This document shows positions 32,492 to 61,033 of a stretch of 64,000 bases of DNA, one piece after another. The position numbers and the translations under genes are program-made. Under the pieces are notes generated by a model, which made no database searches, was not told the origin of the DNA, and worked only from the letters and a program-made list of their open reading frames with translations. Source of the stretch: a virus; the IMG/VR virus record IMGVR_UViG_3300049830_000285, positions 96,001 to 160,000 of that record. One strand, 5' to 3'. Positions within the stretch are counted from its first letter, which is position 1; each line of letters starts with the position of its first letter.

Positions 32492-33072
32492 AAATTACAC
32501 TCCTTAAGCGCAGGGTCGTTCGTTAAAAGCATGGCAATCACAAAAGCGTGACCCATTTTTTTCTTGGGATTATTCAACACGTCTCGCAGCGTATTCCCCA
32601 AATCGTTGTACATGTATCCGTCAAAATCTCGCAAAGCTATATCTTGACCGCCTTCATGGAGTAATTCCAGTTCTTTGTAAGCGGCAGTTTGTACGACGCG
32701 CTCAGCATATAAAGGCGCATAGATTTTCTTTCTTGCTTCGATGTAATCTAAGGGTTCACCGTCCCACCAAGAAAACAATGGCTTAGCGCCTCTGCCCATC
32801 GGATATCGGTCTGCCCATTTTTTACTCCAACCCGTTTTTGCCCATTCAAAATATTCGTCAGTTGGCATATTATTGTCATCAACTTGACTTGCATAAACTT
32901 TTGAATATTGCCATGCATTTTCCATGTTGAGGCTAGCATAATCATCATACAATTTGCAAGGCCCAAGTTTAAATGGACTTAGAGCTTGAAATTGATTGGT
33001 TGAACGACTTGTTGTATTAACCTCAAGCGCACCATTTGGCACTGTGTCATACATAGATAATACGTAAATCAT
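32488..33072 (-). CDS. Phage protein, possibly NADAR-like
   Basis: LSPFKLGP..NMENAWQYSKVY..ARKKIYAPLY; ENAWQYSK resembles the NADAR E-x-x-x-Q-x-x-K motif (recalled, not searched). Confidence 0.45.
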   Translation of the reverse strand: MIYVLSMYDTVPNGALEVNTTSRSTNQFQALSPFKLGPCKLYDDYASLNMENAWQYSKVYASQVDDNNMPTDEYFEWAKTGWSKKWADRYPMGRGAKPLFSWWDGEPLDYIEARKKIYAPLYAERVVQTAAYKELELLHEGGQDIALRDFDGYMYNDLGNTLRDVLNNPKKKMGHAFVIAMLLTNDPALKECNL

Positions 33073-33917
33073 GCTTGCTCCCAATATGCATCTATGAGGT
33101 TGGATAGCAATGTCGCCACCGTCATTGGGCCAACTCCACCGGGAACTGGTGTGATGTAGCTCGCCTTGGGAAAAACTTCATCATATCGAATGTCACCCAC
33201 GGCAACATCATTAACTATGGCGTAACCACAATCAACGGCAACAACTCCATCCTTTAAATCAGCGCCTCGAATTAATCCCGGTACACCAGTCGCAGAAATA
33301 ACAATATCTGCGTTAGCTAAAAGCTCTGGCATGTTTTTGGTGTACTTGTGAGTTATGGACACTGTTGCATCGCGCTCAATCATCATTAACGCCATTGGTC
33401 TACCTAAGATAATGCTACAGCCCACGACAACAACATTAGCTCCTCGCAATGGAATGTTATAGTTGTCGAGTAAACGAATTATTCCAAGAGGCGTAGCGGC
33501 TCGATGACCTTTCATTCGACTTGCAAGCAATCCCACTGAAAGCGGCGAAATACCATCCACGTCTTTTGAAACTTTAACAGTGGACAAAATTTGAGATTCA
33601 TCTATAAAAGATGGCAATGGGTGCTGTACCAAAATACCATGAACGCCATGGTCTTCGTTTAAGCGATGCACTAATTCAAACAATTCAACCTGAGTTGTAT
33701 TTTCGTTGACAAAATAAGCTTCACTTTCAGCGCCAATTTGAGCCGCCCATTTGCGTTTCATTTTAACATAAGAAAGGCTCGGCGCATCTTGCCCTGCGAC
33801 AATCACTGCTAATTTTGGCTTGACTGGCATTGTGTCAACTTGCAATTTAAGTTGTTCTAATGTCGATTTCGCGAGAGATTTTCCATCAAGTAAAGTGCAT
33901 TCAGCCTGCGAGGTCAT
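33069..33917 (-). CDS. folD: Methylenetetrahydrofolate dehydrogenase/cyclohydrolase
   Basis: SYVKMK, HGILVQHPLP, KDVDG, ATPLGI, GCSIILGRPMA, ITPVPGGVGPMTVATL. Confidence 0.96.
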   Translation of the reverse strand: MTSQAECTLLDGKSLAKSTLEQLKLQVDTMPVKPKLAVIVAGQDAPSLSYVKMKRKWAAQIGAESEAYFVNENTTQVELFELVHRLNEDHGVHGILVQHPLPSFIDESQILSTVKVSKDVDGISPLSVGLLASRMKGHRAATPLGIIRLLDNYNIPLRGANVVVVGCSIILGRPMALMMIERDATVSITHKYTKNMPELLANADIVISATGVPGLIRGADLKDGVVAVDCGYAIVNDVAVGDIRYDEVFPKASYITPVPGGVGPMTVATLLSNLIDAYWEQA

Positions 33918-34107
33918 GAATCAAGTATACCACTAAGTTGCTTTTTTGAGGATTTTAGGAGCGACTTAATTGCGCAGCCACCAATCTAGGCCTTTATCCA
34001 CTGTTTTTTTGCTGCTAGTCGCTCCTGGTTGGTGATATGGACTTAATGTCGAATATCATGTAATTGCAGCACAACGGACATTAATATTATACGTTATCTT
34101 AAGAAAA

Positions 34108-34334
34108 GGTGTTACAGTTGAGCTTGCCCGCCGTTCTGCTTTATGTCATCATTTGTCTATTGGCCCCTAAACCATCCCATTATAGTGTCACGCTCGCACT
34201 AGGGAAATTCGGGTTGCATACATCCTCCGTGGTACAAGCGACGAATCTCCCACGTTACGTGAATATGCGGCGAAGTTTCTCACCATGTCTCATTAGATTG
34301 AGGTTAGTGCGATGACTTCTCTGACTGTAACATC
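34108..34334 (-). ncRNA. rnpB: Minimal RNase P RNA (catalytic domain with vestigial S-domain)
   Basis: Hand-folded: P1 UGUUACAGU/ACUGUAACA; P2 GUCAUC/GAUGAC; P3; CR-I GAGAAACUUCGCC with CR-V GCAGAACGGCGGGCA forming P4 with bulged U; P5 GCAUAU/GUAUGC; P6 UCACG/CGUGA; P7 CGUGG/CCACG; P15-P17 with GAAU and GGU; CR-IV AGACAAAU; TATAAT at 34337-34342. Confidence 0.85.
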
Positions 34335-34401
34335 TTATTATATCCATAAAAGAAAGGTAATGAGGAAAAACCATCAGAAATTGTAAAACAAAGGTATCGT
34401 C

Positions 34402-34974
34402 ATGCATAAAAAATTAGTTTTAGCAAATTTAGCGGCTGTTGCCAATAGACTAGATGAGCGCGGTATTCATGATGGTGCTGATGCTCTTACACAAGTAATG
34501 CAGCGCATTTCTCAAAACGCATGGTGGCAAAACGATGCTGGCGAGCCAATGTATAGCCCAGAAGCCATTCGCTCCGAAGAAAGAGCTGATAGCGAACGCG
34601 AATATGACCAAGACCCAGGGGATTATAATTCACGACATGATTTTGAAGAAGAAGAGCCAGCTTTAAAGTCACCATCTCCTCATTTACTTCAAGCAATTCA
34701 ACAAATTATGGGCACACCACCGGGCACTCCGTATGTGAAAGGCTATGTTTGGGGCCCGTTAACAGATGAGGTTGCATTTGAAAATCGCGAAGATTTAATG
34801 AAAGTTGTGGATTGGCTATATCAACATCAAGAATTCAACAACGAGTGGGACGGCTACCGAGAACAGCCACCGAAAATTACAATGCCAGAAGATACCGCCG
34901 ATTCTGAGCATCAAATGCAGCCAGAAAGAGAGGATTTCGGGCATTTTGGTGATGAAAGATTAATGGGTGAATAA
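34402..34974 (+). CDS. Acidic hypothetical protein with ANxLD-type N-terminal motif
   Basis: MHKKLVLANLAAVANRLDERGIHDGADALTQVMQRISQ, then a D/E-rich body. Confidence 0.7.
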   Translation: MHKKLVLANLAAVANRLDERGIHDGADALTQVMQRISQNAWWQNDAGEPMYSPEAIRSEERADSEREYDQDPGDYNSRHDFEEEEPALKSPSPHLLQAIQQIMGTPPGTPYVKGYVWGPLTDEVAFENREDLMKVVDWLYQHQEFNNEWDGYREQPPKITMPEDTADSEHQMQPEREDFGHFGDERLMGE

Positions 34975-35936: not shown

Positions 35937-36767
35937 CTATATTTCCTCAGAAAGAAATTCTTCAATCTCCTTCTGAGTCAAACCGAGAGAGCTGTGCCAA
36001 TATTCGTATGGCTTTTTGTGGAATGAATTCCTATAGCGTTCGAGAGTATACCTCTTTTGACGTATTAATTCCCGTTCCCTTTCCACCCAATATTCCACTT
36101 CTGGCTGCAATGTTTCTTCCAAGTACGGCAACATGCGTCGAATAAGGTCTTTGCAGACGTTATACCGACCTTTATTACCAGGCCTTATCTGTTGTTCCAG
36201 AAGATGTGTCACCGAGCGCACATGGTCTCGCACAATCGGATGCCAGTCTTGGTTGAAAAGAGAAGTCTCATCGACTCTACTCTTACCCTCCATAACTTGC
36301 ACAAGCCGCTCAAGCCCGAATCCAACATCAACTGAGTGTTCCAAAGGATTCACAAGATTTCCAATTTCTAAGTCATTGACAAAAAGTTCGCAGCAATAGC
36401 CGCCAATCTCTCCGTCTGACCAAGTACATTCTTCATCTGGGACTGTGTTATAGCCAAAGCTATCCCATAGTTTTTTGTGATGCAATTGAGTTGGGTGAAC
36501 AGTAACATGTGTGACAGGAATGTTTAATTCACTGATAATGTTATGCCACATTTCTACAGATTTGTGATAATCGTAGTTCCCGAAAGAAAAAGAACCAAGC
36601 ATCTCGAAATACGTGAGATGAGTTCCGTCGCCCACTAAATCCACGTCAATCGTTCGCAAACATGATTGTAAGCTCGAATGATGACTATTATCTGGATTGT
36701 GGAATTTTGGCTTCACCACTTGCATTCCGCTACATGTAAATAGCGTAGTGTCGTCTGGTGGAAGCAA
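35937..36767 (-). CDS. alaS: Truncated alanyl-tRNA synthetase (aminoacylation core only, 276 aa)
   Basis: TTLFTCSGMQ, QSCLR..DLVGDGTHLTYFEMLGSFSFG, LEIGNLV, VDVGFGLERL; no editing or C-Ala domain. Confidence 0.85.
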   Translation of the reverse strand: MLPPDDTTLFTCSGMQVVKPKFHNPDNSHHSSLQSCLRTIDVDLVGDGTHLTYFEMLGSFSFGNYDYHKSVEMWHNIISELNIPVTHVTVHPTQLHHKKLWDSFGYNTVPDEECTWSDGEIGGYCCELFVNDLEIGNLVNPLEHSVDVGFGLERLVQVMEGKSRVDETSLFNQDWHPIVRDHVRSVTHLLEQQIRPGNKGRYNVCKDLIRRMLPYLEETLQPEVEYWVERERELIRQKRYTLERYRNSFHKKPYEYWHSSLGLTQKEIEEFLSEEI

Positions 36768-37670: not shown

Positions 37671-37723
37671 TAAATTATTATACTACTTTCCTCATGATAT
37701 TGTCATCCGAGTATAATACAATA

Positions 37724-45064: not shown

Positions 45065-45143
45065 TGGTGGAGGATACGGGATTCCAACCCGTCTGTTTTC
45101 TTCCTTGCAAAAGAAGCGACCACCGCCAGTAGTCCTATCCCCC
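45065..45143 (-). tRNA. tRNA-Ala(UGC), atypical
   Basis: GGGGGAU/AUCCUCC with G3.U70; UUUGCAA loop; A8; T-loop UUGGAAU; 7-nt variable loop; ACCA. Confidence 0.8.
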
Positions 45144-45500: not shown

Positions 45501-45610
45501 TATCCTGTCTTAGATGGCTATGCCGTCTAATACACAGAATGTTTTCCAAAGTATTTCATGAGTTCATTATACTACGAAATACTCACGTTGAGGAAATTTG
45601 GTGGAGGAGG

Positions 45611-46545: not shown

Positions 46546-46619
46546 TGGTAGGCAGTGAAGGAATCAAACCTTCACTTCTCCCTAATCAGGGGAGCAGTCT
46601 ATCATTAACTTAACCGCCC
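46546..46619 (-). tRNA. tRNA-Ile(GAU) with U37
   Basis: GGGCGGU/ACUGCCU; CUCCC-CUGAUUA-GGGAG; D-loop lacks GG; T-loop UUUGAUU; ACCA. Confidence 0.8.
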
Positions 46620-51242: not shown

Positions 51243-51323
51243 ACTGTGATTATAGCATAAAATGATGGTTTTGAGGATATTTGAGATTTTCCTCAAAATA
51301 GGTTCAAAGCAAGCTATGAAATC

Positions 51324-56742: not shown

Positions 56743-56762
56743 TGCTCAATTATAGCAGATTG

Positions 56763-57086
56763 TTACCCTTTTGAGGAAAAAGATTCATGTAATGAGCCGC
56801 CAATATCACAATATTCAGAAGCATCGAATGGTCGGTGCCAATTTTCGCCTTGACTTTGATTGTATTCCATATCTTCTGGATGCGGATATGGAATGAGTGC
56901 AATTCTGGGAATATCTATGCATCCACCGTCTAGCGACACAAGAATCGAAAAAGCTAAACCATCCAGAGCTTCTTCTTTACTATCTGTTTCAACTCTAGCC
57001 CAATATTTAACCAAGTGCTTGATGTGATTAAGAAAAATTTCTCTTGTTTCTTCTGCTGTTTGTTCTCTAGGCTCTGACATTTTCAA
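56763..57086 (-). CDS. Conserved phage hypothetical protein
   Basis: FLNHIKHLVKYW..LDGLAFSILVSLDG..LHE. Confidence 0.65.
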   Translation of the reverse strand: MKMSEPREQTAEETREIFLNHIKHLVKYWARVETDSKEEALDGLAFSILVSLDGGCIDIPRIALIPYPHPEDMEYNQSQGENWHRPFDASEYCDIGGSLHESFSSKG

Positions 57087-60955: not shown

Positions 60956-61033
60956 AGTAATAAATCATACTCTATGCGAAATGCTACTTCCTACATAAAT
61001 CCTCAATAAATATATGTGTGATATAATATAAGT

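Follow-up and report, generated by a model that had tools for sequence, protein, structure and literature searches.

The window, which is the whole 64,000-nt stretch of viral DNA analysed here, has a gap of 484 nt that is flanked by folD (33069-33917, minus strand), recognised by a match to Pfam THF_DHG_CYH, and an open reading frame (ORF) of 190 aa whose product is unknown (34402-34974, plus strand). Within this gap lies an RNA gene on the minus strand, measuring 221 nt from the first to the last base of helix P1 (34111-34331), which is supported by covariation and by a cmsearch score of 238 bits with the family covariance model R1 described below. The parent IMG/VR virus record of the window (G000) comprises 177,708 nt, with a completeness estimate of 47%, and has PHROG matches to tail and head proteins as well as 23 tRNA hits.

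Two other features of the window were noted. Three giant ORFs of 2632, 2293 and 2874 aa follow one another in a row on the plus strand (492-23983). Close to the RNA gene, a 276-aa ORF (35937-36767, minus strand) matches the class II alanyl-tRNA synthetase (AlaRS) domain, PF01411, over its N-terminal portion only (profile positions 27-138 of 552). Judged from its sequence, the product resembles AlaRS but is truncated, its role being unknown, and the same gene is also found near the RNA gene in two related contigs (L002 and L233).

RNase P RNA is a ribozyme that trims new tRNAs, and a preliminary description of this DNA had read the gap as encoding a minimal version of it. All the elements named there, that is P1 to P7, P15, P16 and P17, the GGU in J16/15 and AUAGACAAAU, were found where they had been placed on the minus strand. 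P1 is formed by a 5′ strand, GUUACAGU (34331-34324), and a 3′ strand, ACUGUAAC (34118-34111), and is prolonged by an inner extension that pairs GAG (34321-34319) with CUC (34122-34120). P2 pairs GUCAUC (34311-34316) with GAUGAC (34150-34145), and a single G separates its 5′ strand from P3, a hairpin of variable length (34281-34309) that is reduced to a minimal form in the relatives L006, L324 and L318. The following CR-I-like segment (34268-34280) consists of J3/4, AGAA, and the 5′ strand of P4, ACU[U]CGCCG, whose partner is CGGCGGGC (34133-34126); P4 has 8 bp, arranged as 3 bp, a bulged U and 5 bp. P5 joins CAUA (in 34258-34267) to UAUG (34220-34217) and has 4 bp, not the 5 bp originally assigned to it, while the P6 pseudoknot joins UCACG (34262-34258) to CGUGA in L17 (34192-34188). 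The segment 34165-34216 contains J5/15 (CAA), P15 (CCC/GGG), J15/16, P16, P17 with L17, and J16/15, AUGGUUUA, with its GGU; its helices are numbers 8-10 of our alignment. The remaining segment (34134-34164) is made up of the CR-IV-like J15/2, GCCAAUAGACAAAU, the 3′ strand of P2, and the CR-V-like J2/4, AUAAAGCAGAA. The connection from P15 to P2 is only 14 nt long and lacks P18. AGAA, UAGAYAAAU and GCAGAA are kept in all aligned members of the family.

The specificity (S) domain is replaced by nothing more than P7 (CGUGG/CCACG) and its 17-nt loop, GAGAUUCGUCGCUUGUA (34228-34254), which sit between the two strands of P5. The loop contains a mini-hairpin capped by UUCG. The reduced S-domain and the missing P18 were both described correctly from the sequence at the outset. 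This mini-hairpin reads GA[UUCG]UC in the window, GAC[GAAA]GUC in L324 and GAA[GAAA]UUC in L325, and the insert in the P7 loop measures 17 nt in the window, 46 nt in L318 and approximately 135 nt in L321. A 16-nt block of the stub is invariant in seven sequences.

Conservation of the fold and its relatives

Single-sequence folding compared with shuffled sequences was unremarkable (z = -0.7 for the minus strand and -1.2 for the plus strand), and since the fold energy is not distinctive, the sequence alone is insufficient to judge the RNase P claim. The structure of the preliminary description was mapped onto two alignments, one of 7 sequences (A2) and one of 10 sequences that includes the window (A3). 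In A2, 97.1% of the cells pair, as compared to 32-42% when the partners were slid, and both bases have changed in 26 of 57 pairs, against 0-4 in the slid controls. In A3, pairing is found in 95.8% of the cells (33-41% in the slid controls), and both-sided changes are seen in 32 of the 53 pairs. These changes affect all six pairs of P2, in which 100% of the cells pair, all five pairs of P6, 7 of the 11 pairs of P1 with its inner extension, and 3 of the 5 pairs of P7; P3 shows an exchange of CAC/GUG for CUC/GAG. Covariation among homologues, whose absence would have refuted the RNase P reading, is thus present.

Within P4, every one of the eight pairs is retained, 97.5% of the cells of A3 pair, and four of the eight pairs have changed on both sides with one further pair changed on one side. 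The earlier statement that P4 keeps its bulged U and has changed in a compensatory way is borne out by these data; the A.C pair that was reported with it is real but peculiar to the window, the same first pair being A-U in the other nine aligned sequences. The pseudoknot exists in at least six variants, including UCACG/CGUGA in the window, CCGUU/AACGG, UUGCU/AGCAA and UCGCU/AGCGA, and the more divergent members have CAGUU/AACUG (L324), CAACA/UGUUG (L318) and GGAGAU/AUCUCC (L321). When RNAalifold was run without an input structure, it recovered P1, P3, P4 with its U unpaired, P5, P7 and P15-P17. The G.U pairs identify the minus strand as the RNA strand. We also considered whether the region is coding, and rejected this because of the compensatory substitutions and because neither of the indel lengths in P3, 4 and 19 nt, is divisible by three. 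These findings confirm that 34331-34111 (minus strand) is a conserved structured RNA.

The family comprises ten further distinct copies, all in other large-phage contigs (L002, L006, L226, L232, L233, L241, L324, L325, L318 and L321), which were collected by several routes. A FolD search of a large protein collection returned a tight clade with 65-92% identity, ordinary bacterial FolD proteins being approximately 50% identical, and the 190-aa ORF has five relatives. Scanning the contigs that encode relatives of either protein by nhmmer yielded L002, L006, L226, L232 and L233. A scan with the invariant 16-mer of the P7 loop gave L241 alone, which is located in an IMG/VR record of 478,840 nt, besides chance hits in coding sequence, and a pattern scan with the J2/4-P4 block gave the more divergent L324, L325, L318 and L321. 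The covariance model R1, built from the relatives as had been suggested in the preliminary description, finds every family member in cmsearch with scores of 233-266 bits. Other searches did not extend the family: in the phage GenBank collection, neither the intergenic region (at the DNA level) nor the neighbouring 190-aa ORF had a match; searches of IMG/VR with single neighbour proteins gave no related loci; further exact-pattern scans of IMG/VR gave chance hits only, among the matches listed; and a two-block pattern applied to metagenomes and GTDB genomes returned known members in duplicate as well as chance matches, and bacterial genomes contributed none of these.

Two of the divergent members deviate in their architecture. 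In L318 (4643-4902, minus strand), in addition to the insert in the P7 loop, J2/4 contains a 36-nt hairpin at a site that is also an insert site in many Bacteroidota rnpB genes. L321 (4789-5105, minus strand) is AT-rich and approximately 317 nt long; its large insert occupies the position of the P7 hairpin of the other members, and its P4 seems to lack the bulged U and to run through as 8 uninterrupted bp. L321 may be an intermediate that has kept more of an S-domain.

Comparison with known RNase P RNAs

Database models do not identify the RNA. Rfam at the gathering threshold reported only tRNAs in the window and no RNase P RNA match, and at E <= 10, on sequences of 901 nt and 241 nt, it gave no match to any RNase P family (RF00010, RF00011, RF00373, RF02357 and RF00009) or to a riboswitch, so that the expectation that standard models would miss this RNA has been met. 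The sole Rfam match at E <= 10 around the RNA gene, to NsiR4, was dismissed as a chance hit. RF00010 had no match anywhere in G000 or in a complete relative, G001. In the reverse direction, R1 found neither the E. coli rnpB nor the rnpB of five bacterial genomes, and a chain of position weight matrices derived from 33 rnpB genes failed to rank the site in the 178-kb phage record and gave no significant result. A model of the 3′ half of the family (R2), run on 24 rnpB loci, placed its best match on the homologous 3′ part of the rnpB of L289, though weakly (E = 0.1); on 31 whole genomes, just 1 of its 83 matches at E <= 10 fell in rnpB, that is in 1 of the 31 genomes, and it was not the top match. 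This single match exceeds chance placement but remains a lone case and is weak evidence, as is the sequence-level link to authentic rnpB in general. Since the statistical link is weak, the assignment to RNase P rests on the architecture and the junction motifs and not on a database score.

For this comparison, the E. coli rnpB aligned to RF00010 was used as the yardstick, together with 32 further authentic rnpB genes (33 in total). The phage RNA has the same order of helices, P1-P7, P15, P16 and P17, as bacterial type A RNase P RNA (RF00010; M1 RNA of E. coli, encoded by rnpB), and it shares with it the P6 pseudoknot between J5/7 and L17. The register of P4 is also that of type A, with 3 bp, the bulged U and 5 bp, and the phage helix aligns without gaps to E. 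coli GAGGAAAGUCCGG / CAGAACCCGGCUUA: the 5′ strand is ACU[U]CNNNN in the phage family and AAG[U]CCGGG in E. coli, and the 3′ strand is NNNNGGGY plus A in the phages and CCCGGCUU plus A in bacteria. P5 and P7 have 4 and 5 bp, respectively, in both the phage RNA and RF00010. The RNA thus has the topology of the catalytic (C) domain of type A RNase P RNA, including the long-range helices P4 and P6.

As judged by inspection, the junctions resemble their bacterial counterparts in length and sequence. J3/4 has 4 nt in both (AGAA in the phage RNA, AGGA in E. coli), J5/15 is CAA in the phage RNA and AA after GC in bacteria, and the 6-nt J15/16 has the phage clade consensus AAACAG, which is identical to that in the rnpB of L285. 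J16/15 reads (C)GGGUUA in the phages and GGGUA in bacteria; GCAA, AAACAG and GGGU(U)A all match authentic rnpB, while J2/4 is GCAGAA in the phage RNA (AUAAAGCAGAA) versus bacterial ACAGAA. The CR-IV of the phage RNA, UAGAUAAAUGA, equals the Bacteroidota rnpB consensus; over the longer stretch, the phage sequence GCCAAUAGAYAAAU compares with (C)AGAUAAAUGA in that consensus and with GCUCAGAUAAAUG in rnpB genes that lack P18. Such genes occur naturally, some authentic Bacteroidota rnpB genes being without P18, and they share the link between P15 and P2 of the phage RNA, GC..AGAUAAAUG. The covarying C-domain fold of type A, the exact register of P4, and junctions that match the RF00010 consensus and the 33 rnpB genes support the original reading of the RNA as a minimal RNase P RNA.

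There are also clear differences. The phage RNA has 221 nt as compared to 320-550 nt for bacterial type A, lacks P8-P14 (the S-domain with CR-II and CR-III) as well as P18, and is encoded by a phage, unlike bacterial rnpB. In P4, the E. coli pairs A67-U359 and G68-C358 correspond to C-G and U.G in the phage RNA; two bases that are invariant in the 33 bacterial sequences are therefore altered (A67 to C and G68 to U, E. coli numbering), with pairing kept.

Reduced RNase P RNAs are known from other systems. Those of organelles, such as Rpm1 of yeast mitochondria, are strongly reduced around P1, P4 and the CR-I/CR-V core and also lose most of the C-domain periphery; the phage RNA has retained the bacterial C-domain in full. 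In bacteria, the C-domain of the E. coli RNA cleaves substrates on its own, the P6-like pairing is needed for this, and P18 becomes dispensable once the S-domain is gone (PMC5839562). Like the phage RNA, the engineered Eco CP RPR of that study is a C-domain without the S-domain, and its requirement for a P6-like pairing but not for P18 agrees with the covarying P6 and the absent P18 of the phage RNA; however, such constructs are laboratory truncations with reduced efficiency, whereas the phage RNA is a natural, conserved family with a P7 stub of its own. A natural RNA poor in S-domain is the type T RNase P RNA of the Thermoproteaceae, which earlier Rfam models had missed (PMC3579882). Type T (RF02357) is diminutive and has lost most of the S-domain, as has the phage RNA, but it is archaeal and works with archaeal proteins, whereas the phage RNA has the bacterial P6, P16 and P17 and the GGU of L15. 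RF02357 does not match the phage RNA at E <= 10. The parallel with type T that was drawn earlier holds as an analogy only, and the reduction of the S-domain in the two looks independent. Finally, the RNase P-like RNA of orthopoxviruses (camelpox) is encoded by a virus and did not cleave pre-tRNA in vitro (PMC3001073). It resembles RNase P RNA in secondary structure, as the phage RNA does, but it belongs to an animal virus and has no tRNA-gene context, whereas the phage family shows covariation and has tRNA genes nearby.

Genomic context, tRNA genes and promoter-like sites

In three other lineages (G001, L325 and L318), the RNA gene is found in or near tRNA arrays. G001 is a 478.8-kb phage, complete by CheckV and with direct terminal repeats, that has one copy of the RNA and 62 tRNA hits; the RNA lies inside a tRNA array on the same strand, and a tRNA-Arg gene begins 12 nt past the 3′ strand of P1. 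In L325, the RNA is again within a tRNA array, with tRNA-Gln beginning 2 nt past P1, and in L318 a tRNA array is located 2.4 kb upstream of the RNA. L321 has a tmRNA gene 1.4 kb upstream. In the lineage of the window, the RNA gene adjoins folD and the closest tRNA genes are approximately 8 kb away; in the window, L002, L006, L226 and L232, folD is downstream of the RNA and shares its strand.

On two contigs, L233 (at L233:1034-1756) and the 80-kb contig of P0008 (a FolD with 92% identity), a LAGLIDADG_2 homing-endonuclease gene lies between the RNA and folD. This gene, which is not present at that place in the window, looks like a free-standing mobile endonuclease beside a structured RNA gene.

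CCA is encoded by each of the 12 tRNA genes in the window, in keeping with the conserved GGU of the RNA. Non-standard T-loops, UUGGAAU and UUUGAUU, in which position 56 is not C, were seen in the tRNA genes at 45065-45143 and 46546-46619 (minus strand), respectively; ARAGORN found both genes, and Rfam at its gathering threshold missed the one at 45065-45143.

A promoter-like site precedes the RNA gene on the minus strand (34337-34366), as had been described: TCCTCA (34366-34361) is followed after 18 nt by TATAAT (34342-34337), 5 nt ahead of P1, with no transcript shown. Its TATAAT box is invariant in seven homologues. The motif TCCTCA-N16-19-TAWAAT occurs six times in the window (34337-34366, 37689-37717, 45566-45594, 51249-51277, 56749-56777 and 61000-61027), as compared to 0.19 occurrences expected, and its sequence suggests a promoter class, probably specific to the phage, in which the upstream hexamer is unusual.

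Possible function of the RNA

We consider it probable that the gene encodes a miniature phage RNase P RNA derived from bacterial type A, which has kept the C-domain and lost P8-P14 and P18; both its catalysis and its transcription are inferred. The idea of a working C-domain-only RNase P RNA draws on the published C-domain work (PMC5839562), taken together with the covarying P6 of the phage RNA and its lack of the S-domain and P18. PF00825 (RnpA) has no match either in G000, with its completeness of 47%, or in G001, which is complete. As these searches revealed no phage rnpA, the RnpA protein of the host is assumed to be the partner with which the phage RNA most likely works. The RNA would be transcribed from its own TCCTCA...TATAAT promoter, or together with the tRNA genes in other phages, and would then fold and bind host RnpA. 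The acceptor end of a pre-tRNA could be held by pairing of the GGU with the encoded 3′-CCA and by the A in J5/15, and the 5′ leader would be cleaved with metal ions at the bulged U of P4. A phage with dozens of tRNA genes might in this way have its own supply of the catalyst that matures tRNAs, and in phages with a tRNA starting 2-12 nt past the RNA, this cleavage could at the same time trim the 3′ end of the ribozyme itself.

RNase P RNA has been regarded as a cellular gene, and it is one of the two ribozymes known from all domains of life. Full-text searches of the literature found no phage-encoded RNase P RNA; a screen of circular megaphage genomes with all of Rfam reported only tRNAs and a tmRNA (PMC8172020), and a 2024 review of RNase P brings in phages solely as suppliers of tRNA substrates. 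With a conserved family of this kind, the translation-related genes of huge phages would come to include a catalytic RNA, and standard annotation would be shown to have missed a class. Which parts of the bacterial RNA suffice in vivo has so far been studied via engineered truncations; the phage family would answer this question from nature and would also offer a compact ribozyme for structural and engineering work.

A more far-reaching proposal is that large phages have independently re-derived the smallest RNA that is enough for RNase P function in bacterial cells, a protein-lean RNase P RNA which captures host RnpA or needs no protein and ignores the tRNA elbow, so that phage tRNAs, including those with aberrant T-loops, mature independently of the host and the ribozyme has its own 3′ end trimmed via the following tRNA. 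This we regard as possible but rather unlikely. The connection to aberrant T-loops, which goes back to the preliminary description, is speculation; of the 12 tRNA genes in the window, no more than 2 have such loops.

The conserved elements and the gene neighbourhood also bear on readings in which the RNA derives from RNase P without serving general tRNA maturation. It might be a decoy or regulator that has kept the RnpA-binding face of the C-domain and soaks up host RnpA or competes for pre-tRNA, skewing tRNA maturation in the host, and that has no catalytic activity. The parts that hold substrate and metal would be superfluous in a decoy; nevertheless, the bulged U, CAA, GGU, CAGAA and P6 are conserved or covary across lineages, and a location inside phage tRNA arrays is more easily understood for a processing enzyme than for an inhibitor. 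We therefore think this improbable, while recognising that without a phage rnpA any protein interaction must be with a host protein, that two P4 bases invariant in bacteria are altered, and that the poxvirus RNase P-like RNA is inactive in vitro and has been discussed as a possible decoy (PMC3001073).

We give still less credence to a ribozyme that acts on changed substrates, such as polycistronic phage RNAs, tRNA-like structures or host RNAs. The loss of the S-domain, which recognises tRNA at its elbow, would accord with such a change, and the strong conservation of the stub suggests a new contact; its size ranges from 17 to approximately 135 nt between lineages. The GGU and the encoded CCA nevertheless indicate ordinary recognition of the acceptor stem, the neighbouring genes are tRNAs, and C-domain-only constructs still cleave model substrates of the tRNA type (PMC5839562).

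That the RNA is an unrelated structured RNA merely resembling RNase P RNA, such as a leader or riboswitch of folD, is very improbable: although folD follows it on the same strand in five contigs, the window's included, and no database model names RNase P, the copies in G001 and L325 are in tRNA arrays and that in L318 is 2.4 kb from tRNAs and not beside folD, the LAGLIDADG endonuclease gene intervenes in L233, no riboswitch family matched in Rfam at E <= 10, and the topology, a double pseudoknot whose helices and junctions match in length, is peculiar to RNase P. A folD leader was rejected also because phages further out in the FolD clade possess folD but not the RNA. The miniature RNase P RNA is our preferred explanation, with the rival readings not excluded.

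The interval between the RNA gene and folD has a feature of its own. At 33958-34025 (minus strand), an 8-bp stem, GGAGCGAC...GUCGCUCC, encloses approximately 52 nt, and the corresponding stem in L002, GGGGUGGC...GCCACCCC, shows a compensatory change relative to the window. The stem may be a conserved element involved in terminating the RNA transcript or in regulating folD. On its 3′ side it is followed by AAAAUCCUCAAAAA and then by TCCTCA-N17-TATACT, which ends 6 nt before the ATG of folD and would, if used as a promoter, yield a nearly leaderless folD mRNA.
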